64,000 nt of DNA, from assembly GCA_964613915.1 (NCBI GenBank), contig CAZTIW010000014.1, positions 30,928-94,927 of the forward strand, written 5' to 3'. Both the position numbers and the translations under genes were made by a program. Positions within the stretch are counted from its first letter, which is position 1, and the number at the start of each line of letters is the position of its first letter. Positions 39,279 to 63,757 of the stretch are shown here, in pieces. The DNA comes from an uncultured Thermoanaerobaculia bacterium. GTDB lineage: Bacteria; Acidobacteriota; JBCCFW01. The notes below the pieces were generated by a model. That model was not told the origin of the DNA. It saw only the letters and a list, made by a program, of their open reading frames with translations, and made no database searches.

Positions 39279-39660
39279 TTTCCGCCGCGGCGGCCGGGCA
39301 GGCCGCACGGGCCGCTTCGCGTCTCGCGGGCGCCCCGGCCCCTCCGCATGCCCTGCAAGTCTTGTGGATGGGCGGATTTGCGTGCCAGAATGCCGCACCG
39401 GTCGGGGTCGGCGTGTCCTGGGGCACCTGGGCCAGCTGAGCCACGGGGCCGCTCGCAGGCACGAAGGCGTCACGGGGGCGGGCCGAAGCGCGGCCCGGCA
39501 GGCCCGAGTTCGGGCTCCAGCCCGCGCCGTCTCCGCTGCGGGCGGACCGCCGCCATGACCGGGGCGCGGGGCCGGAAGGTCCGGCGCGTTCCCCTGCAGG
39601 TCGGCGCCGGCAGCTCGCGGGCCGTCGCCCCGCCCGCCCCATCCCTCACGGGAGCCCTCG

Positions 39661-42600
39661 ATGACCCTGCAACGCCATCTGTTCGGGATTCTCCTCGCCG
39701 TCTCGGTTGCCCTCGTGCCGTCATCGGCCCTCGCCGCTGACTCCGATGGCGACGGCGTGGACGACGCCTTCGACAACTGCGTCGCGACGCCGAACCCGGG
39801 CCAGGCCGACGCCGACGGCGACGGTCGCGGTGACGCCTGCGACAACTGCCCGCTCGCGGCGAACCCCCTGCAGGTGGACGCGGACTTCGACGGATTCGGC
39901 AACGTCTGCGATGTCTGCCCGACCGTGGCCGATCCGGGCCAGGCGGACGGGGACGGCGACGGCGTGGGCGACGCGTGCGACAACTGCCCGGCGGACTTCA
40001 ACCCCGGCCAGTCGGACATGGATGGCGACCTGCTCGGCGATCCGTGCGATCCCGATGCCGACGGCGACTTCCTTCCGGACGGCTTCGACAACTGCCCGCT
40101 GGTCCCGAATCCGCTGCAGGAGAACGCCGACTTCGACCCCTTCGGCGACGCCTGCGACAACTGCCCGACGATCCCCTCGGCCTCGCAAGCGGACAATGAC
40201 GGCGACGGCGTGGGCGACGTCTGCGACAACTGCCCGGCAACCCTCAACGCCTCGCAGGCAGACGCCGACGGCGACAACGTGGGCGATGCCTGCGACAACT
40301 GCCCGTCCGCGAACAACGCCCTGCAGTCCGACAGCGACGGCGACGGCATCGGCGACGCGTGCGACATCTGCCCGGCCGTGTTCGACCCCGCGCAGCCCAA
40401 CTCCGACGGCGATGCCTTCGGCGACGGCTGCGACAACTGCCCCACCGTGACGAACGCGCTGCAGTCCGACCAGGACGCGGACGGCGTGGGCGACGCGTGC
40501 GACGACTGCCCGTTCGCGGCCGATCCCGGCCAGACGGACGCGGACGGCGACCTGGTGGGTGACGCCTGCGACAACTGCCCCTCGATCGTCAACAACACGC
40601 AGGCTGACCAGGACGGGGACGGCGTGGGCGATCCGTGCGACAACTGTCCGTCCACCGCCAACGCGGGCCAGGCCGACGCGGACGGCGACGGGCGCGGCGA
40701 TGCGTGCGACAACTGTCCCGGCAACGCCAACCCGGGCCAGGCTGACGATGACGGGGACGGCCTCGGCAACCCTTGCGACAACTGCCGCTTCATGCCGAAC
40801 CCGCTCCAGGAGAACGCCGACGGCGACTCGCGCGGCGACGCGTGCGACAACTGCGTCAACGTCCCGAACGGCGGTCAGGCCAACACCGATGGCGACGCCT
40901 TCGGCAACGCGTGCGACAACTGCCCGACGGTGGCCTCGCTCGATCAGGCGGATGGCGACGGCGACGGCATCGGCGATGTCTGCGACAACTGCCCGACCGT
41001 GAGCAACGCCTCGCAGGCCGACGCCGACACGGATGGCGTCGGCGACGCCTGCGACCAGTGTCCGGCCATCCCCGACACGGATCGCGACGGCGCGTGCGAC
41101 TTCCGGGACAACTGCCCGCTCACGTTCAACCCGGATCAGGCGGATTCGGACATTGACGGCGAGGGCGACGCGTGCGACGGCTGTCCGTGCGATCCCGCGA
41201 ACGTGAACTCGGACGGCGACGCCATCTGTGACTGCGTGGACAACTGCCCGGGCACGACCAACCCCGATCAGCTCGACACGGATCTCGACCGTCGCGGCAA
41301 CGCCTGCGACAACTGCCCGCTCGTCGCGAACCCGTCGCAGCTGGACACGGACGGCGACGGCCGTGGAGACGCCTGCGACAACTGCCCGACGCGCGTGAAC
41401 CTGTCGCAGCTCGACGCCGACGGCGATGGCTTCGGCAACTCGTGCGACAACTGCGTGTTCATCCCGAACCCCACGCAGCTCGACTCGGACGGCGACGGCT
41501 GGGGCGACGTCTGCGACAACTGCCCCGTGGCGAACCCCACGCAGGCGGACGCCGACGGCGACGGCATCGGCGATGCCTGCGACAACTGCCGGAGCGCGGC
41601 CAACGCGACGCAGATCGATGGCGACGGCGACGGCGTGGGTGACGCCTGCGACAACTGCCCGGCGGTCGCCAACGCGACGCAGGCCAACACCGATGGCGAC
41701 GGCGCCGGCAACGCCTGCGACAACTGCCCGACGGTCGCGTCCGCCACGCAGCTGGACTCGGATGGCGACCTGGTGGGCGACGCCTGCGACAACTGCCCGG
41801 GCATCGCGAACGCGACGCAGGCCAATCGCGACGGCGACGCGCTCGGCGACGCCTGCGACAACTGTCCGACGGTGGCGGGCGCCAGCACGGCCGACAGCGA
41901 CGGCGACGGTGTCGGCGACGCGTGCGACAACTGCCCGTCCTTCCCGAACACGCTCCAGAACGACGTGGACCGCGACGGGACGGGCGACTCGTGCGACAAC
42001 TGTCCCAGCGTCGCGAACCCCCTGCAGCAGGATGGCGACGGCGACGGCGTCGGCGACATCTGCGACACCTGTCCCGCGACCGGCGACAACGATCGGGATC
42101 TGGATGGCCGTTGCGGCGACGTGGACAACTGCCCGTTCGTCGGCAACCCCGGCCAGGAGGACGCCGACGGCGACGGCCTCGGCGATGTCTGCGACGCTTG
42201 CCCGCGTGACGCCGCGAACGACGCGGACGGCGACGGCATCTGCGCGAACTCGGACAACTGCCCGACGGTCTTCAACCCGAACCAGGCCGACGCCGACAGC
42301 GACCGGATCGGCGACGCCTGCGATCCGTTCCCGGGCGACACGCTGAACGACGCCGATGGCGACGGCATCCCGGGCACGATCGACAACTGTCCGAACGTCA
42401 GCAACGCGCTGCAGCTCGACGGCGACGGGGACGGGCGCGGGGATGCCTGCGACAACTGTCTCGCGTTCCAGAACGCCGGCCAGGAAGACCTGAACGTCAA
42501 TGGCCGGGGCGATGCCTGCGAGGTCCGCTACGGCGACGTCGCTCCCGCGGGCATGCCTGACGGGGTGCTCAACGTCGGCGATGTCGTGCGCGCGCTCCGC

Positions 42601-42792
42601 TTCGCGGTCGGCCTCGAGGTGCCGACGCGGTCCGAGCGCGACCGGTGCAACGTCGCGCCGGCGCTGCTGGCGGGCGCCAACCCCCAGATCGCCACCCCGA
42701 CGCAGGCGGCCCCGCGGCAGATCGATGTCTCCGATGTCGTGCTGATGCTGCGGGGCTCGGTCGGCCTGCTCGTCTTCACCGATCCGGTCTGA
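39661..42792 (+). CDS. Secreted thrombospondin-type-3 (TSP3) calcium-binding repeat protein, 1043 aa, with dockerin-like C-terminal segment
   Basis: Signal peptide [25 protein letters not shown]; about 40 tandem copies of D[14 protein letters not shown]; C-terminal paired segments [19 protein letters not shown] and [16 protein letters not shown]. Confidence 0.85.
39730..42480 (+). repeat. Intragenic tandem array of about 75-bp TSP3 repeat units
   Basis: Recurrent GACGGCGACGGCGTGGGCGACGCCTGCGACAACTGCCCG-like units throughout the CDS. Confidence 0.8.
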
Positions 42793-47650: not shown

Positions 47651-47690
47651 GCGGCCCGGATCCGCCCGGATCCGCCCGGATCCGCCCGGG
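47651..47690. repeat. Intergenic 10-bp direct repeat, about 4 copies
   Basis: GCGGCCCGGA TCCGCCCGGA TCCGCCCGGA TCCGCCCGGG immediately 3-prime of the E2 stop and 5-prime of lipA. Confidence 0.6.
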
Positions 47691-52805: not shown

Positions 52806-54008
52806 CTACCACACCGCGTAAAACCGCAGGTCCGTTCCGCTCCCCACATCGGGATCACCCAGCGTCGTCGCCGCCGCCGCACCGTCGAGCACGCTCCACG
52901 GGCCGTTCGCGACGTCCGAGCGCTCGACGAGCCACGGCGCGCGCGCCCCTGTCCACGAGAGCACGACATCGCTTCCCGAGCGTCGCGCGCGCAGGTCCAC
53001 CGGCGTGAGAAACCACGGCCGTGCCGTCGGATCCGTCCGGTAGAATGCCGACAGGAGCGAGGACACCCTCATGCGGCCCGCGGGAGAGGGATGCGTGCCG
53101 TCGGGCCCGAGATCCGCGCACTCCCACACGAGCCCATCCGATCGCGGTGTCATGCCATCCGCCCACAGGTAGGGCCCCCACAGGAGCCATGGCGACTCGA
53201 CCGGTCCGAGCGCGGCATCGGGATTGAGCGCGGGATCGCCGTCGAGCTGATCCTCGATCAGCCAGCGAAACGAGAAGCCCTCCTCGAACGCGTACGGCTC
53301 GGGATTGAGCGTGGTCGTGGCGTAGCCCGCGTAGATGCGGCTGCTCACGTGCGCGAGCCGCAGGTTCGGGAAGTGATCGCGCAGAAGCGCGACGATCTCG
53401 CGCAGCCGGTCGAGCATCTCGAGCGCATGAGCGGGAAACGCGCCGAAGCTGGCAGGCTGCCGCCGCGCGAGCTTGATCCACGCAACCTGCACTTGCCGAG
53501 GCGTCAGCCCCGCCACCGCGAGCCGTCGATCGCACTCGGCCCACACGTCCGAGGCGGGATCCGCCCAGTTGCCCGCCTCGCGCCCGCCTTGCGCGAGATC
53601 CACGATGCGCAGCCGCGGATGAAGCTCGGGATCGCCAGCCTGCTGCGTGATGAACGTGGAAAACTCCTGCGTCGTGTTCGACATCCCGATGGACGCGAGA
53701 ACGATGACGCCCGAAGGCGACGGCTGTCCGCTCGCGTCGAGCGGCACGATGCCGCGACGCGCAAGGAGCAGAGTGGCCTCGACGTGCGATGCCGGCGCGA
53801 AGTTCACGCCGCCGGGGTACAACCCCCCGGGCTCGCCGAGATGCCCCGCGCCGGGATCGCTGAGGGGGATGAAGCCGACGGAGGTCTGCGCGCAGTCCTG
53901 GGCGCGGGCGGGGGTTGCTAGGCCGAGCGAGGCGACGGTGATGGCGAGCGTGGCGGGGGTCAGCCGCGCGAGGATGCCGGGACGAACGGCTGGGCGGGAC
54001 GAGAGCAT
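52806..54008 (-). CDS. Secreted hypothetical protein
   Basis: Start set at MLSSRPAVRPGILARLTPATLAITVASLGLATPARA (signal peptide); protein-like composition. Confidence 0.5.
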   Translation of the reverse strand: MLSSRPAVRPGILARLTPATLAITVASLGLATPARAQDCAQTSVGFIPLSDPGAGHLGEPGGLYPGGVNFAPASHVEATLLLARRGIVPLDASGQPSPSGVIVLASIGMSNTTQEFSTFITQQAGDPELHPRLRIVDLAQGGREAGNWADPASDVWAECDRRLAVAGLTPRQVQVAWIKLARRQPASFGAFPAHALEMLDRLREIVALLRDHFPNLRLAHVSSRIYAGYATTTLNPEPYAFEEGFSFRWLIEDQLDGDPALNPDAALGPVESPWLLWGPYLWADGMTPRSDGLVWECADLGPDGTHPSPAGRMRVSSLLSAFYRTDPTARPWFLTPVDLRARRSGSDVVLSWTGARAPWLVERSDVANGPWSVLDGAAAATTLGDPDVGSGTDLRFYAVW

Positions 54009-54059
54009 GACGGCGGACTCCACGCGGAACGTAGCGCCGGGGGGCGGCGGGAGGCAAGG

Positions 54060-54125
54060 GCAGGGCGCTTGACGGGCATGCAAGGGAGGCGTAGCGTCGG
54101 TTCTTGCTTGTTACACGACGTAACT
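54060..54125 (+). promoter_or_regulatory. Candidate promoter/operator upstream of the rhs gene
   Basis: TTGACG-N17-TAGCGT sigma70-like spacing, then a locally AT-richer stretch with GTTAC-N5-GTAAC inverted repeat and duplicated TTGCT. Confidence 0.25.
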
Positions 54126-54182
54126 TGCTATGCGGTCGCGCGCCAGGCTGTGGGAGGCACGCGAGGGACTGGAGGTGAGGTG

Positions 54183-57100
54183 ATGCCCGTGGCGATGCGT
54201 TGGCGCGGCATGCTCGTTCTGCCGATCGTTGGCATGGTTCTTGCCCCCCCCTCCGCGCTCGCAGGATGGCCCGAGGGACACGTGCAGGTTCAGGTGGAGA
54301 AACCCTGTCCCGTGGGTCCCAGTCGCTCAGGTGTTGGCCTCGGTGACGGGTCGCTGACGCTCGACTTTCCGTTCGTCCTCGTCCCGCAGGCGCCTGGACC
54401 GGTTGTCTTCTCCTTGCAGTACGCCAGCGGAGCGGACAACCCCGGGACGTACGGCACGCGGCTGAACCTGCGCGTCCGGACGGAGAAGCGAACGGACGCG
54501 TGCCCGGGGTTCTCGCCGGCGTCGGACTTCGTTCCGCGAGCGGTGGATGCCGCGGAGGTCAACTTCAACACATCGCCGGGCGATCAGCGCGCCGTGGGCT
54601 TCGGCGTCCGAAAGTCAAACAACGGCGGCTCCTCGGAGGCCTGCAACGTCTCTCGATCGAGTGAGATGCCATTCCCTTCCAGCAACTTGGTTCGAGGGGG
54701 AGGACTGCCGTCGGACTGGTGCCCGGGCGGCCCCGTCGGTGGCCACGGCTGCGTGTCCGACATGGAAGCCGTGGTCACGCTGCCGCTGCGACTCTCGGAT
54801 CCCGGCGATCCAGGAGCGCAGATGGCCTATCAGCGGAAGGCGCCTGGCCAGCCTGACTGTCCACCGCCGGTGCCGAATGAGTTTCCGGCGGATCGCGGGG
54901 TCTACAGCATCAATGCGGGGGCGACGCTTCGATTCGACTCGCCCGCGTACTCAAGGAACGACTACAGCCACGACGACAGGCAGTCCGACGACCCGTGCGA
55001 GCAGTTCCTCTACCTCGAGAAGCGGCCTGACGAGACCATCGCGCGCCTCGGCGTGAACTGGACTCACTCGTTCGCATGGAGCCTGACGGAATATAGCGTT
55101 GGCACGAGGCAGTTCGTTGCAGTGAGGTCGCCGCGCGGGAGCGTGAGCCTGTACGAGCGGCCGGCGGGACTGGCTCTCAACCAGGAACTCCCGCTTCGTC
55201 CCTCGGCAGGCTGTTCGTGCCAATCGGCGCGGCTCTTCTGGACTAGGCGCTCGTTCGCTCCTCCCGGGATCGGCGTGAGCTTCTTCGCCTACGAGCTCGT
55301 GGCCGAAGACGCTTCACGCATGGTCTTCACGGAGTTCAGCGTCTTCGAGGGGGGACAGCTTCGCGCCCCGGCAGGTCGCCTCGTTCGTCTCGAGGACAAC
55401 GATGGCCAGAGTCCCATCGCCCTCACGTACGACACGAACGGCGACCTGGCCCGCGTCTACGATGCAGCGGGCTTCCACGTGGAGCTGCAGTACGCGGAGA
55501 CCCCAAGCGGGCGACGGCTCGAGCGGCTCGTCCTGCCGGGCGGGCGGCAGGTCTCGCTGGGCTGGCTGGCGGGCAAGCTCGCTTCGCTGCGCGACCCCGT
55601 TCATGTCGCTCAGAACCTTCCCGGCTACACGTTCGCCTACGGCACGGGCTTGAGTTCCGAGGACATCACGTGCCGCACGTCGCCTGACGGCGAGATTCAT
55701 CGGTACACGTACATCACCGATCCTGCGGATCCCAACGCCGGCCGGCTCAAGACGGCCGAGATCGTGGACAGCTGCGAGGCTACCGAATCGAAGAACACGC
55801 TGACCTACACGTACTCGCGCCCCGACTCCGTGGACGGCGAGCGCTGGGTGAAGATCACGCCTCACTTGGTGACCACGGCACCCATCATCAAGAACGTTCT
55901 GAACGCCGACGGCCATCTCATCCGCACGGAAGAGATCTGTGCCGAGACGAGCGCCGAGGCTGTTGCGCGATCCTGTCCGGTGGTGCCCGAGATCAGTCCG
56001 CACCCGGTCGTTGCGATGGTGAGCTCCACCAGCTACGACGAGTTCGGACAAGCGCGCGCCGTGCGCACGTACCCCGTGGTGCTCCCTCCCTACGACCCGT
56101 CGGATCCGCCGAGCCCAACGAGCCTCGATGCCACGCACTTCTCGGTATCGTGCGTGACGCGCGATGCGTCGCAAGGCAAGCCCATCACGTTGTTCGGGTC
56201 AACATGCATTGATACCTCGACCGTGCCGCCGACGGCGGTGGATGGCTGGACGGATGAAGCCTGCGACTGCGATCTGGCGCAGCTCAATGCCGCCCCCGTT
56301 CCGACGGTCGCGCCCATCGGCACGCAGGTGAGCTGGGAGTTCGATGTCCAGGGTGCGGGTCCGACGCCGATCCTCGTCACGTACGATCGGCCCCGCCGCG
56401 TGATAGCGCCGAGCCAGCGGACAGACCCCGGGCAGGGCGCGCCTGGAGCCAGCGCCAAGGGCGTGCGGATCTTCTACTACGAGACGGTGGGGTATCCCAT
56501 CCGTTCCCACATCTCGGACATCTGCCCGCCCGAAGTGGACTCACCCGAGCCCGGGTTGGGCTGCGAGCACTTCGAGTACAACTTCTACACGATCCACGGC
56601 GGCGACGTGGTTCAGCTTGCGAGCCGGACGGACGGCTCGGGGAACACGTGGACCTACGAGTACGATCCGCTGACGCATCTCCTGTCGCGGATCACCGCTC
56701 CGTCGTCGGACGGACAGCAGTTCGTGACGAACTTCCAGTACGGCACCGACGGACTCTTGAACTACGTCGAGGCGCCGGGCGGTCTCGTGACCGCGTTCCT
56801 GCGCAACGAGCGCGGACAGATCGCGATCGAGTCCCGCCCGGGCGCGGCGCCGCCGGAGCGCATGCAAGTCCGCTACACGTACACGCCCGGGGGCAAGCTG
56901 CGGCGCATCGCGGATGAGAGCCGGGAGTCGCAATCCTCCCCGGGGAAGTACGTCGCGTGGTGGATCAGTTATGGCGGACCGGCGGTGTTCAGCGACTGGG
57001 GTGCCGAGCCCGCACAGTTCGAACGACTCCCCCGTGCGCTGCGGCGCGGCCCGGCCACTCTGGGCGGGCCGTTCGCCACGATTGACGCGGACGAGCTTCA

Positions 57101-59282
57101 ACCTGATGAGCTGGCCGGAACGGTTTACGAGAGCTGGGACTACGACAGCAACCTCCAGCCCGTGGCGACCTACTACGGCCCTCCGTTCACCTTCAGGCGC
57201 GCACTCGTGACGAAGCGCGATGGCTTCGGTGCCGCACTCGACCTGGTCATCATGGGCCAAGGAGATTCGCCCGCCTTTTTAGAGCGAACCTGCATCGAGT
57301 CCGACCCGCGGACCGGCCTGCCACGCTCGGTCTCGTTCAGCCTGGCCCCGCCCGACGAGGATGACCTCAACTGCCCCCTGACGAACGGCGCCATGCGGCA
57401 CTCCTTCACCTACGATCGCGCAGGCCGCGCCTCCTCCACGAGCATGCAGTGGGACTTCGGAGCCGAAGGCGCGGGACTGCACCAGACCTGCCGCCAGCAT
57501 GATCCCTGGGGTCGGCTGACTCAGGTCGTGGACGAGGTGACGCTCGCGCCCACTCCCGGCTGCGATCCGATCTCGGCCTTCCGGACGACCGACGTCGCTC
57601 ACGATGACGCGGATCGTCCCTGGCTCGTGACGCTGTCCAACGCGGGGCTCCCCTACGCCGACTACCAGGTCGAGTACGACAACAACCAGCGCGCCTTCAA
57701 GTGGACCGAGGCACAATCCCGCGAGTACCTGGCGATGTCGTATCGTCCTGACGGTCTGCTGACGAACATCACGCGCGGTCGCCCGCACTCGGGTGGCTCG
57801 TCCTGGCTCGACACGAAGTTCACGCAGGACCTGCGGTACGATGCCCGGGGGTTTGTCATGCGCCTCGAGCAGCATCGCCTGCCGTACCTGTGGCCGTCGG
57901 GGGACACGACGTGGTTCTACACGCATGACGACGCGGGCCGGCTCACGGGGGCAGCGCTCGATCCCGTGGACTGGCCGTCGCTTCCGAACATCGTGGACGA
58001 GTCGTACGCCTACCTGCCCTCCAATCCCTGGAACCTCGCGTCCATCACGGACAACCTGACCAGCACGACGACAGCGTTCCCGACCGATGACGAGGATCGC
58101 ATCCAGACCCCGGATCGCGAGTATCACGCGTTCATCGGAGCGCTGAAGAGGGAGAACGGCGCGGGAGGCCAGACGCGGCGATACCGCTGGGATGTCGCGG
58201 GCCGCCTCATGGCCGTGCTGGAGGGCACCGACGCGACGGGGTACGCCGGGACGGCCTACTCGTACGATCCCTGGAACCGCCTCGTCGCCGAGCGACCGAT
58301 CACCACGGCGACGGCCACGGGCCAGCCCGTCTCGGCCGGCTCGCCGACGATTCACCTGTGGAGCGGATGGCAGCAGGTGGGGGAGGTGGAGTCGTTCGCG
58401 TCGGCGCCGGCGTTCGCGTGGAGCGACGGGCCGATGGGCCTCGCGGGCATCAAGCGCGAGGGCTCGTCACACGAGAGGCTGTTCTCGGACGCGCAGGGGT
58501 CGGTGAAGTACGGCTTCGCAGACGATCCCGTGTACACGCCGTTCGGCAAGGTGGTGAGCGGCACGCTGAGCACGGCCAAGGGCTTCCAGGGCCAGGAATG
58601 GCGCGACGAGGCGCGGCTCTACTACATGCGCCACCGCTGGTACGACCCCGCCAGCGCGCGCTTCCTGTCGCGCGACCCCGTGCGCACGGGCGCGATCCAT
58701 AACTTCGCGTTCGCGATGGATAGCCCGGTGATGATGGGGGATCCGATGGGGTTGGATACCTTCGTTCTCATTGCTCATGCAGGCGGGGGCGGCGACAAGA
58801 AGGGCTCGTTTGGCCATGCTGCGCTTGTGACGTGGGATGAAACCGGGGCCGGAGGGTTCGTCGACCACATGGGCCAGAACTCCATGTGGGATCCCAGTCC
58901 GAGCATTTCCATTCCGCACGCTGATCGCGTCTCTCGGTTCGTCAGCAACTATGTTCGAGGCAACCACCGAGACGTGAGCATCTTCGAACTCGATCTGAGT
59001 GCTGAGGTCGAGGCTGCATTGCGCAATGCTATCTCCGCTCGCGCCGGTGCCCCGGAACCGAAAAGGCTCTTCACCAACAACTGTACAGATGTCGTGACAG
59101 ACGTGCTCCATCAGGCAGGCGTGAGCGAGCGAGTGCGGATATTAGGTCCGTTTCCACTGTTTCTATTCACGATGAGAGTACCGCTCGGTGGAGGGCACGG
59201 AATCAGCTGGCCGGATAGGCTCCACTCCTCTCTTCTGAAGGCTCCGTTCACACGTAGCTACACGCGAATTGAGGCCCAGTGA
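54183..59282 (+). CDS. RHS/YD-repeat polymorphic toxin, about 1700 aa, with signal peptide and variable C-terminal toxin tip (CT1)
   Basis: ATG at 54183 preceded by GGAGG; signal MPVAMRWRGMLVLPIVGMVLAPPSALA; many YD-type repeats; core end LYYMRHRWYDPASARFLSRDPV followed by the DPMGL boundary; divergent 175-aa tip. Confidence 0.9.
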   Translation: MPVAMRWRGMLVLPIVGMVLAPPSALAGWPEGHVQVQVEKPCPVGPSRSGVGLGDGSLTLDFPFVLVPQAPGPVVFSLQYASGADNPGTYGTRLNLRVRTEKRTDACPGFSPASDFVPRAVDAAEVNFNTSPGDQRAVGFGVRKSNNGGSSEACNVSRSSEMPFPSSNLVRGGGLPSDWCPGGPVGGHGCVSDMEAVVTLPLRLSDPGDPGAQMAYQRKAPGQPDCPPPVPNEFPADRGVYSINAGATLRFDSPAYSRNDYSHDDRQSDDPCEQFLYLEKRPDETIARLGVNWTHSFAWSLTEYSVGTRQFVAVRSPRGSVSLYERPAGLALNQELPLRPSAGCSCQSARLFWTRRSFAPPGIGVSFFAYELVAEDASRMVFTEFSVFEGGQLRAPAGRLVRLEDNDGQSPIALTYDTNGDLARVYDAAGFHVELQYAETPSGRRLERLVLPGGRQVSLGWLAGKLASLRDPVHVAQNLPGYTFAYGTGLSSEDITCRTSPDGEIHRYTYITDPADPNAGRLKTAEIVDSCEATESKNTLTYTYSRPDSVDGERWVKITPHLVTTAPIIKNVLNADGHLIRTEEICAETSAEAVARSCPVVPEISPHPVVAMVSSTSYDEFGQARAVRTYPVVLPPYDPSDPPSPTSLDATHFSVSCVTRDASQGKPITLFGSTCIDTSTVPPTAVDGWTDEACDCDLAQLNAAPVPTVAPIGTQVSWEFDVQGAGPTPILVTYDRPRRVIAPSQRTDPGQGAPGASAKGVRIFYYETVGYPIRSHISDICPPEVDSPEPGLGCEHFEYNFYTIHGGDVVQLASRTDGSGNTWTYEYDPLTHLLSRITAPSSDGQQFVTNFQYGTDGLLNYVEAPGGLVTAFLRNERGQIAIESRPGAAPPERMQVRYTYTPGGKLRRIADESRESQSSPGKYVAWWISYGGPAVFSDWGAEPAQFERLPRALRRGPATLGGPFATIDADELQPDELAGTVYESWDYDSNLQPVATYYGPPFTFRRALVTKRDGFGAALDLVIMGQGDSPAFLERTCIESDPRTGLPRSVSFSLAPPDEDDLNCPLTNGAMRHSFTYDRAGRASSTSMQWDFGAEGAGLHQTCRQHDPWGRLTQVVDEVTLAPTPGCDPISAFRTTDVAHDDADRPWLVTLSNAGLPYADYQVEYDNNQRAFKWTEAQSREYLAMSYRPDGLLTNITRGRPHSGGSSWLDTKFTQDLRYDARGFVMRLEQHRLPYLWPSGDTTWFYTHDDAGRLTGAALDPVDWPSLPNIVDESYAYLPSNPWNLASITDNLTSTTTAFPTDDEDRIQTPDREYHAFIGALKRENGAGGQTRRYRWDVAGRLMAVLEGTDATGYAGTAYSYDPWNRLVAERPITTATATGQPVSAGSPTIHLWSGWQQVGEVESFASAPAFAWSDGPMGLAGIKREGSSHERLFSDAQGSVKYGFADDPVYTPFGKVVSGTLSTAKGFQGQEWRDEARLYYMRHRWYDPASARFLSRDPVRTGAIHNFAFAMDSPVMMGDPMGLDTFVLIAHAGGGGDKKGSFGHAALVTWDETGAGGFVDHMGQNSMWDPSPSISIPHADRVSRFVSNYVRGNHRDVSIFELDLSAEVEAALRNAISARAGAPEPKRLFTNNCTDVVTDVLHQAGVSERVRILGPFPLFLFTMRVPLGGGHGISWPDRLHSSLLKAPFTRSYTRIEAQ
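57768..58754 (+). repeat. Copy A (inside full-length rhs) of a 987-bp near-identical direct repeat
   Basis: Identical ORF translations recur with a constant offset of 2142 bp (57793-58059 vs 59935-60201; 58192-58506 vs 60334-60648); ends exactly at the DPMGL codons. Confidence 0.9.
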
Positions 59283-59872
59283 GTTCCCGGAAAGCGAGGA
59301 CCCAGGTGGCGCTGCGGCTGCGCGGCGTCGTCGCTGCTCTCATCGCCCGGCCCTGGAGTGTCATCCTCATCGTTGCCGGATGCCTCGCACTGTGGACGGC
59401 GACTCACGTCCTTTGCCACGCGAGGAGTCTGAACCGTCAACTCGCGGACTTTGGCGATCTCCTGAACACTCGGTACTGCCTTGGAGCAATCGACATTGCT
59501 GCGCTCGATCCTGCGCGCATCTCTGGTGACATGGTGGGCGCCTGCCGTCTCATTGACGTGTACGGTCATCAAGTCTCGCTACACGTGTGGTCAGACGGCA
59601 CTAAAGTGCTTTGGTTGCTCGTGTCGCCCGGACGGGATGGCATGCTGGACTGGCCGCTCGAGGTCTATCAGCAAGAGGCCACGGAGATGCAAGGGGATAT
59701 CGGTCGTGACATTCTCGGCGACTTTGATGCTGACATCGTCATCTCCGAGCGCAAGCTCATTCAGTTCCCTAACAAGGTGGATGCCACGATCGCTGATGTC
59801 CTCGGAATCCCCATCGCAAGCCCAGCGCGCTCTCGAAGGACGCTCCGCCCGAGTCAGCGTGAACCGCATTAA
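59279..59872 (+). CDS. Putative cognate immunity protein for CT1
   Basis: GTG start overlapping the rhs stop (GTGA); N-terminal TM helix; local GC is lower than the flanks. Confidence 0.5.
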   Translation: MSSRKARTQVALRLRGVVAALIARPWSVILIVAGCLALWTATHVLCHARSLNRQLADFGDLLNTRYCLGAIDIAALDPARISGDMVGACRLIDVYGHQVSLHVWSDGTKVLWLLVSPGRDGMLDWPLEVYQQEATEMQGDIGRDILGDFDADIVISERKLIQFPNKVDATIADVLGIPIASPARSRRTLRPSQREPH

Positions 59873-59909
59873 TAAGTGGCGCCACTCAGGCCCCCGCTAT
59901 CTGAATACC

Positions 59910-60896
59910 ATCACGCGCGGTCGCCCGCACTCGGGTGGCTCGTCCTGGCTCGACACGAAGTTCACGCAGGACCTGCGGTACGATGCCCGGGGGTTTGTCA
60001 TGCGCCTCGAGCAGCATCGCCTGCCGTACCTGTGGCCGTCGGGGGACACGACGTGGTTCTACACGCATGACGACGCGGGCCGGCTCACGGGGGCAGCGCT
60101 CGATCCCGTGGACTGGCCGTCGCTTCCGAACATCGTGGACGAGTCGTACGCCTACCTGCCCTCCAATCCCTGGAACCTCGCGTCCATCACGGACAACCTG
60201 ACCAGCACGACGACAGCGTTCCCGACCGATGACGAGGATCGCATCCAGACCCCGGATCGCGAGTATCACGCGTTCATCGGAGCGCTGAAGAGGGAGAACG
60301 GCGCGGGAGGCCAGACGCGGCGATACCGCTGGGATGTCGCGGGCCGCCTCATGGCCGTGCTGGAGGGCACCGACGCGACGGGGTACGCCGGGACGGCCTA
60401 CTCGTACGATCCCTGGAACCGCCTCGTCGCCGAGCGACCGATCACCACGGCGACGGCCACGGGCCAGCCCGTCTCGGCCGGCTCGCCGACGATTCACCTG
60501 TGGAGCGGATGGCAGCAGGTGGGGGAGGTGGAGTCGTTCGCGTCGGCGCCGGCGTTCGCGTGGAGCGACGGGCCGATGGGCCTCGCGGGCATCAAGCGCG
60601 AGGGCTCGTCACACGAGAGGCTGTTCTCGGACGCGCAGGGGTCGGTGAAGTACGGCTTCGCAGACGATCCCGTGTACACGCCGTTCGGCAAGGTGGTGAG
60701 CGGCACGCTGAGCACGGCCAAGGGCTTCCAGGGCCAGGAATGGCGCGACGAGGCGCGGCTCTACTACATGCGCCACCGCTGGTACGACCCCGCCAGCGCG
60801 CGCTTCCTGTCGCGCGACCCCGTGCGCACTGGCGCGATCCATAACTTCGCGTTCGCGATGGATAGCCCCGTGATGATGGGGGATCCGATGGGGTTG
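59910..60896 (+). repeat. Copy B (orphan rhs fragment) of the same 987-bp direct repeat
   Basis: As copy A; two single-base differences seen, both synonymous in the rhs frame (ACG/ACT Thr near 58688/60830; CCG/CCC Pro near 58737/60879). Confidence 0.9.
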
Positions 60897-61439
60897 CTGC
60901 CGGCATGGATGGAGGCCGAACTCGCGCAGGCGTATGGCAATGGTTCGTTCGCTGAAAAGGAGGCGACGTTGAGGCGCGCTGTCGCGTTGCTTCGACAGTG
61001 CGCTGCGCCAGACTATCGGAAGACCGTGGGGAACGCGCTGGGTGCGGTCAACGTTCGGGCAATGCTAGCTCGGCCACCTCAGTCGGGCGGCAGTGGGCGC
61101 GCAGGATTCACCAATCCGCACACGGGTGACGTGACGATTACTGCGTTGGCCTTCCGTTCACTTCCGCCGCAGGCAGACGGGAGGGTTAGTTCTCGAGTTC
61201 CGGTAAAGAATGGCACTTGGTCTCCAGCCGGCTACACGCCTCCGATTGGTTCCGCCACGAAGTGGGATGGTCTTCTGATAGCGATCGCCCACGAAGGCCA
61301 GCACGTTGCGGATGTGCTGAGCCGGCAGGGACCTCCCGGTCCGCCGCTGCAAACCTTCGATCCGCGTCACGTTGAGATCCACGAGACCGCTCACGCCATC
61401 GTCGAATCGATGTACTACGCGGGCTGCAACTGTGACTAG
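59910..61439 (+). other. Orphan rhs C-terminal cassette: about 330 codons of rhs core fused to an alternative toxin tip (CT2) with HExxH motifs; no own start
   Basis: In-frame continuation of the RHS core from ITRGRPHSGG to DPMGL, then unrelated 180-aa tip containing AHEGQH and IHETAH; the 5-prime part of the long ORF (59481-59909) overlaps the immunity gene out of frame. Confidence 0.7.
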
Positions 61440-61449
61440 GAGTTCCTTC

Positions 61450-62151
61450 ATGAGGGTACTCGTGCTGGGAATGAGCTTCGCCCTGGTCACGGCGCAACAC
61501 GTGGAGTGCGACGCGAGGGCAGGCTCGGCATCGCTTCGAGAGTCTCGTGCGGTGTTCGTGTCGGATCCGAGGTCACCTAGCAACAGGACAAGACTTGCGG
61601 GCATTCAGTGGCCCGAGGATCCGGACGCGGCCTGTGTCGCCAAGCGCTTTGCCGATGCACTTCTCGCGCGAGAGGGAGCGCGCCCGGTGCGGCGCGGCAA
61701 ACGCCAAGCGGCGCGCATCGAGTTGACCGTGCTCTGGCTGCCCGGGGGGCATCACGGGTACGACGAGTACTGGGATCCCGAGCGCGAGGAGACGCGGGTT
61801 GACTTCGCGCAAGTCTTGGTCGCGACGGGCGCTGCGGTAGTGGACCCCAAGCCGCTCCAGACGTCGAGGAGGCAAGTGTGTGGCCTCCGGATCGGCGAGG
61901 AAATTGCCGAGCGCGGGTATCGCGGAGCATGGGCTCCTGCACTGCAAATGGGTTCGTGCGGAGACCTTTCTGTCCAGTGGTCAATCTTCTTGGGAGAAGA
62001 GAATGCGCAAGCCCTTGTCGTCTGGATTCGGGACGAACTCGCATGCCTCCCGGTGGCATGCGGAGGCGGGACGCCAGAATTCTGCGACGGCGAAATCGCT
62101 GATCTCGTTCGCCAACTGCACGAGCACGAGGAGGAAGGCCGCCGGCCATGA
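61450..62151 (+). CDS. Putative cognate immunity protein for CT2
   Basis: ATG at 61450 with AGGAG 8 nt upstream, 11 bp after the CT2 stop; Cys-containing 233-aa protein. Confidence 0.45.
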   Translation: MRVLVLGMSFALVTAQHVECDARAGSASLRESRAVFVSDPRSPSNRTRLAGIQWPEDPDAACVAKRFADALLAREGARPVRRGKRQAARIELTVLWLPGGHHGYDEYWDPEREETRVDFAQVLVATGAAVVDPKPLQTSRRQVCGLRIGEEIAERGYRGAWAPALQMGSCGDLSVQWSIFLGEENAQALVVWIRDELACLPVACGGGTPEFCDGEIADLVRQLHEHEEEGRRP

Positions 62152-62194
62152 GAGGCCATCGCGCTTCCATGTGGGAGTTTCTCGGAGGCGCGCC

Positions 62195-63757
62195 ATGGTC
62201 TCCTTCGTCAGCCTGTTGTTCCTGTTTGGGATGTTCGCTTCATGCGCAGGCGCATGCTCGTGTCGCGTCTCCGCCAAGCGCGCTCAACCCAGTACGAGCG
62301 AGAGCCCCATGCCGCTGGCCGTGGCCTTGAAGCGTGCCGACCTCGTGACCCTCGGCACGCTTGACATGTCGCCCGAGAGTGACTGCGAGTCGGGCGTCGG
62401 ATTCCGAGTCGAGCGCATCCTGAAGGGCGATGGCCGCGACAGGGAGTCCGTGTGTCTGGGCGATGCTGTCTCGCGCGAGCGGCTTCCGATTCCATTCCTC
62501 GTCAGCGAGGGGAGCGTGCTCGCGCTTCTGCGCCGTGAGCGTCAGGCGACAGCGGTGGGACCGGCGACGTACACGCCAGTTCCGAATCTGGCGGGACTCA
62601 TGCCGCTGGACATCGTCGCGTTCTGCCCGGTCGTGTCGATCAGGCCCGATCAGATCGGAATCCCGGCCGGGTTCAACGGCATGTGGCTGCGGTACCCGGA
62701 TTTCTCTCCCGCTTTCGTGTTCATGACGACGCTCGTTGACATGGAGGAGGCCGTCAGGGGTGAGCGGCCCCGGATGCCGCCGAGCGCCGTGGAAGGGGAT
62801 CGGCCGGGCTTGCGGCGTCCTGCGGCTCCGGGCGGCGGGCCATTACAGGCGCGTCCGCCGCGGCGCGGCAACGTCGCGGGAGCGCGACAGCGAGCGAGCC
62901 CCCTCCTGAGTCACGCTCCGAGGCACGCTGGACTGTTCGCCGCCATCCTCCCCGAGGGAGTCGCGGCGCTCGGTGACGGGGCGTTCGCCATCGCGCATCG
63001 AGGGGGCGCGGCGGTGTCGGTGGGCGAGACGTTCGTGGACACGGCGGGCGATCCGGCGCCGCGCGAGGTCGGGCGGTTCGGGGGCTTCGGCGAGGACGAG
63101 TGCCGGTTCGTGCAGCCGGTGGACGTGGCTGGCGAGAGGTCGCGCGTGCGCGTGCTCGATCGCGTCCGCCGCGTGGTCGTCGAGGTGGACTTCAGTCAGG
63201 AGACGCCAACATGCCTTCGCGAGATCGTGCTGGCGGAGGTTCGCGATCCCGAGGCGGTCGAGGTGTCGCCCGACGGCGCGGTGCTCGTGCTGGACGCTGG
63301 CGAGAACGTCATCCGCGTGGTGCGGGATGGCGCGCTCACCGACAGGCGCATCGGAGCGTTCGGGCGGGGACGCGAGGGCATGAGCTGTCCGCATGATCTG
63401 GCGCTCGGCGCGGACGGGACGATCTACGTGGCCGATTCGGGCAACCGACGCATCCAGCGGTACCGGCTGTCGGATGGCGCATGCCTCGGGCCGTGGGGAA
63501 GCCACGGGAACGCGGCCGATCAGTTCATTGACCCCACCGGGGTTGCCATGAACGAGAACGGCGAGCTTCTCGTGGCCGATCGCTACGCGCATCGCATCCA
63601 GGTCTTCGATGTCGGCGCCGGGCGCGAGGAAGTGGCGCGACGCCTGGAGCTGCCCCCGCAGGTTCGGTATCCGACGCGGCTCGCGGTGCTGGCTGGAAAC
63701 CTCTGCGTCGTGACCTGCGCGCAGCCCTCCGAGGTGTGGGTGATGGCATGTCCGTGA
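62195..63757 (+). CDS. NHL-repeat beta-propeller lipoprotein
   Basis: Signal MVSFVSLLFLFGMFASCAGAC; C-terminal NHL-type repeats (DGTIYVADSGNRRIQRY, NGELLVADRYAHRIQVF). Confidence 0.7.
   Translation: MVSFVSLLFLFGMFASCAGACSCRVSAKRAQPSTSESPMPLAVALKRADLVTLGTLDMSPESDCESGVGFRVERILKGDGRDRESVCLGDAVSRERLPIPFLVSEGSVLALLRRERQATAVGPATYTPVPNLAGLMPLDIVAFCPVVSIRPDQIGIPAGFNGMWLRYPDFSPAFVFMTTLVDMEEAVRGERPRMPPSAVEGDRPGLRRPAAPGGGPLQARPPRRGNVAGARQRASPLLSHAPRHAGLFAAILPEGVAALGDGAFAIAHRGGAAVSVGETFVDTAGDPAPREVGRFGGFGEDECRFVQPVDVAGERSRVRVLDRVRRVVVEVDFSQETPTCLREIVLAEVRDPEAVEVSPDGAVLVLDAGENVIRVVRDGALTDRRIGAFGRGREGMSCPHDLALGADGTIYVADSGNRRIQRYRLSDGACLGPWGSHGNAADQFIDPTGVAMNENGELLVADRYAHRIQVFDVGAGREEVARRLELPPQVRYPTRLAVLAGNLCVVTCAQPSEVWVMACP

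Follow-up and report, generated by a model that had tools for sequence, protein, structure and literature searches.

A main rhs gene and a downstream orphan rhs-CT module with its own putative immunity gene in a high-GC diderm bacterium

The present study concerns an rhs locus (positions 54183–62151) on the forward strand of a 64,000-nucleotide stretch of DNA from contig CAZTIW010000014.1 (assembly GCA_964613915.1), which is analyzed at its full length and is referred to as the window hereafter. In this locus, a full-length rhs gene with a C-terminal tip (CT1) and a putative immunity gene (imm1) is followed by a second copy of the 3′ part of its core, and this copy is joined to a different tip (CT2) with a putative immunity gene of its own (imm2). 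In the Sec-dependent Rhs/YD toxins, such as WapA of Bacillus subtilis, and in the bacterial teneurin-like YD-shell proteins, a signal peptide replaces the adaptor of the PAAR/VgrG/type VI secretion system (T6SS) kind, and a YD shell is combined with a polymorphic toxin and an immunity gene. In enterobacteria, dissociated tips were delimited by Jackson et al. (2009, PMC2935791) with the aid of the GC drop at the tip, and C-terminal displacement was modeled there as a single crossover with a circular intermediate. Poole et al. (2011, PMC3150448) found, in Yersinia and Dickeya, orphan rhs-CT/rhsI modules that keep the core before DPxGL and diverge abruptly after it. In Salmonella Typhimurium LT2, STM0291 and STM0292 share 522 bp of core homology at 95%, recombine in serial passage, and thereby deploy the orphan toxin; this switching probably follows a duplication that preserves the main immunity gene (Koskiniemi et al. 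2014, PMC3967940). We read the locus in the window as a standard arrangement of a main rhs gene and an orphan rhs-CT/rhsI module that arose by C-terminal displacement, with a probability of about 0.82. The arrangement itself is already well described in enterobacteria, and the locus is an ordinary example of it in an unfamiliar bacterium (PMC2935791, PMC3150448, PMC3967940).

The main rhs gene (54183–59282, + strand) encodes 1699 aa, which comprise a predicted signal peptide, a YD/RHS-repeat region, the Rhs-associated core, and CT1; its identification draws on profile matches and on the GC content at the third codon positions (GC3). An ungapped self-comparison at an offset of 2142 revealed a 987-bp direct repeat: the final 329 codons of the core in the main gene (57768–58754, + strand) recur as the orphan core fragment (59910–60896, + strand). 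The copies lie on the same strand and in the same frame, contain no indels, and match at 985 of the 987 bases; their starts are 2142 bp (714 codons) apart, which leaves a gap of 1155 bp between them. The blastn alignment of the copies spans 996 bp (99.5% identity, E = 0.0), and the search of the whole 64-kb window gave no other copy of the core. Both mismatches occupy codon position 3 of the rhs frame: one is at 58688 (G/T), where ACG becomes ACT and Thr is kept, and the other is at 58727 (G/C), where CCG becomes CCC and Pro is kept. On the 5′ side, the edge is ragged over 57759–57767 (6 of 9 bases match), and the identity is at the random level from 57758 upstream; the local alignment score upstream of 57768 was 19, as compared with a shuffle mean of 18.8, and thus no homology was detected there. 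On the 3′ side, the last identical base, 58754, is the third base of the Leu codon in PVMMGDPMGL; all four of the next bases differ, and random-level identity follows. Two further candidates were rejected. One was an older, diverged core homology 5′ of 57768 (a tblastn extension to 59823, with LLTN against YLNT), whose scores equaled those of the shuffles; the other was a third core fragment ahead of the NHL gene downstream of imm2, where none was found.

These results agree with the initial annotation, which had described two near-identical 987-bp copies, 2142 bp apart, that differ only by silent changes and lose their identity at the codon after DPMGL. The pairwise alignment of the copies shows no frameshift, no nonsynonymous change, and no identity past DPMGL. 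The downstream copy had also been taken there for an orphan core fragment, and it is indeed joined in frame to a different tip.

The position of the 3′ edge is informative. The TIGR03696 profile (Rhs_assc_core) matched the main Rhs with E = 6e-18 over profile positions 1–76 of 76, and the match ends at residue 1524, which is the L of PVMMGDPMGL and corresponds to nucleotide 58754. The end of the repeat thus coincides with the canonical core–tip boundary of Rhs toxins. The core domain itself (residues 1451–1524; 58533–58754, + strand) has an identical copy at 60675–60896 in the orphan. The PxxxxDPxGL motif could be aligned with 18 distant Rhs proteins, and in 17 of them a tip of 113–209 aa follows (CT1 has 175 aa). 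A clear contrast is also seen in the base composition: in this window of 72% GC, the GC3 is 0.87–0.95 in the repeat and approximately 0.65 in both tips (0.64–0.66) and both immunity genes, with a sharp break at both junctions. Since the repeat ends at the boundary and the GC3 breaks there, the structure of the locus matches the prediction of the C-terminal displacement model. The displacement reading rests directly on this anatomy, the domain boundary, the compositional break, the intact open reading frames (ORFs), and the recency of the duplication; from these we infer the direction of the displacement, the occurrence of recombination, the toxic nature of the tips, and the role of the downstream ORFs as their immunity proteins.

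Several other features of the main Rhs were recorded. It begins with a predicted Sec signal peptide (54183–54263, + strand), read from the translation as MPVAMRWRGMLVLPIVGMVLAPPSALA followed by G, with a maximum Kyte-Doolittle hydropathy over 15 residues of 1.90 at residue 9. The YD/RHS repeats were recognized by PF05593 (RHS_repeat, E = 4.1e-16) and TIGR01643 (YD_repeat_2x, E = 2.8e-9). The protein is 100% identical to one NCBI protein (P0001), which is encoded on a contig of 101,984 bp, forms a singleton cluster, and for which the precomputed domains are PF05593 and PF25023. The GC3 of the gene, 0.82–0.91, is of the coding type. We also sought an autocleavage motif pair of the aspartyl-protease type, namely, two DPxG-type motifs about 22 residues apart. 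At the core–tip junction, RWYDPASARFLSRDPVRTGAIHNFAFAMDSPVMMGDPMGL holds Asp-Pro pairs 22 residues apart, and the first of them is DPVR, not DPxG. Among the Rhs and about 38 other ORFs of the window, neither Pfam nor NCBIfam gave a match for a PAAR/prePAAR domain in the Rhs, or for vgrG, hcp, DUF4123, DUF1795, or EagR-type links to a T6SS; this result covers 64 kb, and a T6SS may still be encoded farther away.

The locus resembles the rhs-main/rhs-CT-orphan locus of Salmonella LT2 in two respects. One is the gene order: behind a full rhs with its tip and immunity gene, the same strand carries an orphan consisting of the 3′ core, an unrelated tip, and its own immunity gene. Another is that the homology of the common core ends at PxxxxDPxGL and that recombination within this homology would fuse the main gene to the orphan tip. 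The two loci differ in that the homology is longer and closer here (987 bp at 99.8%, as compared with 522 bp at 95%), and in that the present Rhs has a Sec signal peptide and no T6SS neighborhood, while its tips and immunity proteins have no recognizable relatives. As with the dissociated tips of enterobacteria (PMC2935791), a hyperconserved core fragment is nearly identical to the upstream gene, and a GC-rich core is followed by a tip of lower GC; unlike those tips, the orphan here is single and not part of an array, and the host is a diderm of 72% GC. The host can be regarded as a diderm because the window encodes Lnt, FadL, and BamB-like proteins. The cassette 3′ of the delivery gene keeps coding sequence upstream of the demarcating motif, as do the orphan rhs-CT/rhsI and cdiA-CT/cdiI modules (PMC3150448). 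However, the tips of the Dickeya and Yersinia orphans have homologues on full-length genes elsewhere (PMC3150448), and none were found for CT1 and CT2. With the WapA class, the present locus shares the signal peptide in place of a T6SS adaptor, the YD-repeat shell, the tip, and the putative immunity gene, although WapA belongs to a monoderm and the host here is a diderm.

When the displacement model is applied to this locus, a 2142-bp unit consisting of the 987-bp core fragment, CT1, imm1, and the spacer behind imm1 would have entered a resident rhs, probably as a circle, by one homologous crossover inside the core. The insertion would have attached CT1 to rhs and pushed the former tip, CT2, together with imm2, downstream behind the duplicated core fragment. 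If this direction is right, the attached tip, CT1, would be the younger of the two, and CT2 would be the one that was displaced. If the segment between the copies were deleted, a 2142-bp circle with CT1 and imm1 would be released and rhs would continue in frame into CT2 (1524 + 180 aa), while an unequal exchange after a duplication of the locus would yield the rhs–CT2 fusion and yet retain imm1. About 1 kb of direct repeat with 99.8% identity far exceeds the minimal homology for RecA, and recombinants should exist at low frequency in any population. Judged from its sequence, the repeat is very well suited to homologous recombination, and wherever a crossover took place inside it, an in-frame fusion would result.

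The distribution of the two differences bears on how the copies have remained so similar. Both of them, at offsets 921 and 960 of 987, lie within 67 bp of the 3′ end, for which the probability is 0.005 when one end is considered and approximately 0.009 when either end is allowed. This tip-proximal clustering indicates a mosaic history: 920 bp were recently homogenized or co-inherited, and a stretch diverged by about 3% follows. One possible explanation, which we entertain tentatively, is that ongoing intragenomic gene conversion and purifying selection keep the copies identical, the orphan being a maintained substrate for programmed tip switching. With the initial 920 bp free of differences and both of them in the terminal 67 bp, it looks as if conversion tracts seldom reach the edge of the homology; both differences are silent, CT2 and imm2 are intact, and switching in Salmonella has been shown by experiment (PMC3967940). 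Furthermore, the duplicated core has a GC3 of 0.91, with values up to 0.95, as compared with 0.82 in the rest of rhs (54183–57767) and about 0.90–0.93 in the housekeeping genes of the window, and GC-biased gene conversion is compatible with this elevation. However, the clustering would also arise if the tip-proximal bases came linked to the tip: it is predicted alike by conversion that rarely reaches the homology edge and by tip-linked polymorphisms in a population that recombines, two processes that a single genome does not distinguish. The 5′ edge of the repeat has no comparable divergent zone, as it starts abruptly at 57768 with fraying over only 9 bp (6 matches). The higher GC3 of the repeat could equally reflect the known GC-rich hyperconserved core, for which a high GC content is expected anyway (PMC2935791), and the rise is gradual. 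Finally, a single very recent insertion, as in the displacement reading, accounts for everything without conversion.

The silent nature of the differences carries less weight than it may seem to. Among the possible single-base changes in the 987 bp, 24.3% are synonymous (20.3% of the transversions), and the probability that two random changes are both silent is 0.06 (0.04 for transversions). With only two substitutions, the ratio of nonsynonymous to synonymous substitution rates (dN/dS) is uninformative. It is also conceivable that the silent changes are older than the duplication and date from a time when both cores sat in full-length genes under purifying selection. Moreover, a divergence of 0.2% leaves no time for decay, and an intact frame would be expected of a very young remnant and of a functional substrate alike. 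The proposal in the initial annotation that the frame of the orphan is under selection is therefore unsupported: two silent changes out of two, at P = 0.04–0.06, are suggestive and not significant, and the case is a reminder that a claim of selection cannot rest on two silent substitutions. Its proposal of recent duplication or ongoing gene conversion holds for the recency, given the 0.2% divergence, while conversion is at most compatible with the 3′ clustering. Similarly, the orphan had been called a functional recombination substrate rather than decaying DNA; the repeat is a good substrate by its length and identity, whereas its active maintenance is unsupported.

CT1 occupies 58755–59282 (+ strand), where the GC falls to 0.58 and the GC3 to 0.64, and its frame is open at P = 0.002 relative to shuffles. 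A Pfam search to E = 10 gave a single match, which covers the NNC110-bearing segment and is sub-threshold: Lnb_N/DUF4105 scored 21.1 bits (E = 2.5e-4), where the cutoff is 22.2. The Tox-Act1 family of T6SS toxins, which target lipids, has DUF4105 as a sister clade, and TseH is a further relative of DUF4105 (PMC12994826). In CT1, His21 (GSFGH21) precedes Asn-Asn-Cys110, which is the permuted NlpC/P60 order. CT1 thus resembles Tox-Act1/TseH/DUF4105 in its His-then-Cys order (H21, NNC110), in the weak Lnb_N match, and in the putative membrane-anchored immunity protein, although it differs from them in scoring under the gathering threshold. It is a candidate permuted NlpC/P60-type toxin that may target lipids or the envelope, which is a lead and not a classification. 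No CT1 matches were obtained in NCBIfam, in the PDB sequences, by plasmid tblastn, or in the metagenome and viral scans. The word-indexed protein search with CT1 also returned nothing, yet it missed even P0001, which contains CT1 exactly (residues 1525–1699), so this negative is a weak one. This kind of search seems to miss the C-terminal tips of long proteins, and its negatives for polymorphic-toxin tips are accordingly weak.

The putative immunity gene of CT1, imm1 (59306–59872, + strand), encodes 188 aa with an N-terminal transmembrane helix and is open at P = 0.004. It starts with GTG 59306, and a ribosome-binding site, GAGGA (59296–59300), lies 5 nt before this codon; an alternative start, GTG 59279, overlaps the stop codon of rhs. 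The GC contents at its three codon positions (0.69/0.45/0.69) fit the imm1 frame and not the orphan frame. The maximum Kyte-Doolittle hydropathy, 2.27, was found over WSVILIVAGCLALW, and a predicted membrane-anchored product fits a lipid or envelope target for CT1. Neither imm1 nor imm2 matched any family in Pfam or NCBIfam.

Between the stop codon of imm1 and the orphan core lies a spacer of 37 bp (59873–59909), the sequence of which forms the unique junction at the 5′ edge of the orphan. It contains a perfect 10-bp palindrome, GTGGCGCCAC, at 59876–59885; no T-run follows, and the palindrome is thus not terminator-like. The orphan core fragment has neither a signal peptide nor the N-terminal part of the shell, and no in-frame start codon with a Shine-Dalgarno sequence was found near its 5′ edge. 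Its in-frame extension back to TTG 59481 overlaps imm1 and has a non-coding composition. The corresponding 652-aa ORF (59481–61439) was rejected as a real gene, since its first 390 nt cross imm1 and show the codon-position GC of that gene's frame.

The orphan tip, CT2 (60897–61439, + strand), has 180 aa and is open at P = 0.005. It is unrelated to CT1, the identity between the two being at the random level. Two HExxH motifs, HEGQH (residues 132–136) and HETAH (residues 162–166), lie 30 residues apart in CT2 and hold 4 of its 6 His residues. When the amino acids of CT2 were shuffled, at least one HExxH occurred at P = 0.007, and at least two occurred in 0 of 1e5 shuffles. Because the two motifs exceed the shuffle expectation, CT2 is likely to be a real metal-dependent enzyme domain, a candidate hydrolase, and it may represent a new family of metal-dependent toxins. 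A HMMER search of 1.84 billion representative proteins gave no homologue of CT2, which is a solid negative: only eight weak, multi-stretch matches over residues 7–63 were returned, all in long proteins, and they were rejected as homologues and read as helical-repeat noise. CT2 also had no match in Pfam (E up to 10), NCBIfam, PDB, plasmid tblastn, the metagenome and viral scans, or the word-indexed protein search. As regards toxins of the zincin-type metallopeptidase class, CT2 thus shows HExxH motifs and matched no metallopeptidase family. The gene that follows, imm2 (61450–62151, + strand), encodes 233 aa, is open at P = 0.0009, and has codon-position GC contents of 0.72/0.51/0.71; a ribosome-binding site, AGGAG (61438–61442), is located 7 nt before its ATG at 61450. 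Its N-terminus, MRVLVLGMSFALVTAQ, is signal-peptide-like, and the product looks secreted. The order of toxin and then immunity gene, as far as the gene structure goes, is thus present in both pairs, CT1–imm1 and CT2–imm2.

These properties of the cassette bear on whether the orphan matters to the cell at all. It may be a very young neutral by-product of tip replacement, that is, a silent remnant on its way to decay, in which only imm2 is perhaps kept against neighbors that deploy CT2. The missing start site, signal peptide, and shell of the orphan would be expected of such a remnant; at 0.2% divergence, its intactness says nothing about selection, and a young neutral remnant is as compatible with the sequence as maintained switching; and orphan cores with in-frame stops are known, for example, in Yersinia pseudotuberculosis IP32953 (PMC3150448). 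The conservation of CT2, for which the 1.84 billion representatives hold no homologue, cannot be demonstrated. However, the two HExxH motifs are far beyond chance, the ORFs of CT2 and imm2 are intact, and imm2 has its ribosome-binding site. In addition, dissociated tips are evolutionarily conserved according to Jackson et al. (PMC2935791), and Salmonella does deploy its orphan (PMC3967940). On balance, we consider a neutral remnant rather unlikely.

The lack of a start site at the orphan edge also raises the question of expression from within the core. In Salmonella, transcription start sites lie in the region common to the main gene and the orphan, 89 nt before the sequence encoding PxxxxDPxGL, and a non-ATG start there gives a toxic protein (PMC7043789). 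In the present orphan, an in-frame ATG at 60576 is preceded by GGAG and lies 107 codons ahead of the end of DPMGL, and the same site exists in the main copy. The orphan, and the matching part of the main gene, might accordingly be expressed from an internal promoter or start in the duplicated core as an intracellular module of the toxin–antitoxin kind, such as has been reported for Salmonella rhs. This is improbable in our view, as it is no surprise that one of 32 in-frame start codons has a weak Shine-Dalgarno match, and both putative immunity proteins look exported or membrane-anchored, which fits toxins acting in the envelope and not a toxin–antitoxin pair of the cytoplasm. Nor was a sigma-70-like promoter found in 53500–62400, although such a scan is perhaps ill-suited to this organism.

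A 987-bp near-perfect repeat is difficult for short-read assemblers, and it must be asked whether the tandem structure is real. Two strain variants, core–CT1–imm1 and core–CT2–imm2, might have been joined in tandem, or the identity might have been inflated by polishing. The assembly is probably that of an uncultured organism, the protein is a singleton, and no related genome exceeds 47% amino acid identity for the E1 dehydrogenase encoded near rhs. However, the junction running from the imm1 stop codon through the 37-bp spacer into the mid-core position 57768 is unique, and the collapse of two whole-gene alleles cannot make it. Assemblers usually break or collapse at such repeats instead of building an in-frame tandem, and the architecture matches a well-documented natural arrangement. 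An assembly artefact is thus highly improbable.

Several points weigh against the displacement reading and are collected here. No T6SS, PAAR, or VgrG gene occurs in the 54 kb upstream of rhs, and the delivery route is thus unlike that of the experimentally studied enterobacterial cases. Neither tip significantly matches a known toxin family: the link between CT1 and NlpC/P60 is a Pfam match 1 bit under the threshold, and no homologue of any kind was found for CT2. The single-sequence AlphaFold models of CT1 and CT2 were unusable, with a predicted local distance difference test (pLDDT) score of 38. No related genome or metagenome contig was found, and consequently neither tip has been seen attached or unattached elsewhere. 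The identity of the copies could also have been inflated by consensus polishing.

The relatives of the locus were sought as follows. The 329-aa core had none in the genome, metagenome, or viral contig collections, and CT1 and CT2 were not found on full-length rhs genes in the genome, metagenome, viral, plasmid, or protein collections, the word-indexed part of this negative being weak. When the full Rhs was compared with 5.8 billion proteins, only itself and Rhs proteins with at most about 30% identity over partial alignments were recovered. As a measure of the distance of the host, the neighboring fused E1 dehydrogenase was examined: full-length matches reached 47% identity at best, in metagenome-assembled genomes of Terriglobia, Thermoanaerobaculia, Eisenbacteria, and 'Deltaproteobacteria', and at other loci the best local segments attained up to 63%. 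None of the 80 loci compared by the synteny of the E1 dehydrogenase encodes a relative of the main Rhs. Judging from these comparisons, the species-representative genome set contains no genome closely related to that of the host.

With the displacement reading retained, the significance of the locus can be stated. A high-GC diderm that is deeply divergent and probably uncultured also has the architecture of a main and an orphan rhs with a sharp boundary at DPxGL, which supports C-terminal displacement as a general property of Rhs and not an enterobacterial peculiarity. The points of novelty are modest: a Sec-signal Rhs without a T6SS context in a divergent lineage, an unusually long and near-perfect homology, and two pairs without recognizable relatives. 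Beyond this, the importance is mainly for annotation, in that neither a pseudogene nor a 652-aa ORF would be the right entry for the downstream copy, which should be recorded as an orphan rhs-CT module with an immunity gene; the locus also offers two candidates for new toxin–immunity pairs, CT1/imm1 and CT2/imm2. A bolder reading, which we regard as distinctly unlikely as a whole, is that a Sec-exported, T6SS-independent Rhs of an undescribed high-GC diderm lineage switches, via the 987-bp repeat, between two envelope-targeting toxins, both from families without detectable relatives: a permuted NlpC/P60-like lipid enzyme with a membrane-anchored immunity protein and a double-HExxH hydrolase with a secreted immunity protein. 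If true, it would extend orphan-tip switching beyond the T6SS-linked Rhs of Salmonella, the sole case so far, to another delivery class and another phylum, and it would add two new toxin families and two new immunity families.

Finally, the surroundings of the locus were examined by scanning the approximately 38 other ORFs of the window against Pfam. An operon for lipoate and 2-oxoacid dehydrogenase functions (LipB, E1, E2, LipA) lies directly upstream of rhs, and the other genes of the window encode a family X DNA polymerase, Lnt, FadL, a BamB-like protein, a type II secretion system F protein, peptidases, and a DUF4388 response regulator. None of the scanned ORFs matched a transposase, and the searches for promoters, terminators, tRNAs, and Rfam families near the locus gave nothing informative. 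Directly upstream of and divergent from rhs, a 425-aa ORF (52806–54083, − strand) has a coding-type GC3 of 0.83 and no match in Pfam or NCBIfam. Right after imm2, an NHL-repeat protein is encoded at 62195–63757 (+ strand; Pfam NHL, E = 2e-20, with weak TEN_NHL and SGL matches); its gene has a GGAGG ribosome-binding site, and its N-terminus, MVSFVSLLFLFGMFASC, resembles that of a lipoprotein. In teneurins and in one of the distant Rhs matches (P0005), YD shells are fused to NHL beta-propellers, and the adjacency seen here may be functional or a coincidence. At the boundary between the genes for lipoyl synthase and the E2 acyltransferase, a perfect 10-bp tandem repeat, GCCCGGATCC, occurs in 3.6 copies (47654–47689). 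Farther upstream, the gene at 39559–42792 (+ strand) encodes a protein of 1077 aa in which thrombospondin type 3 repeats make up nearly the whole length (Pfam TSP_3, E = 4e-124, 15 stretches), and tandem DNA repeats of 69, 138, and 207 bp with 67–74% identity were found within it.

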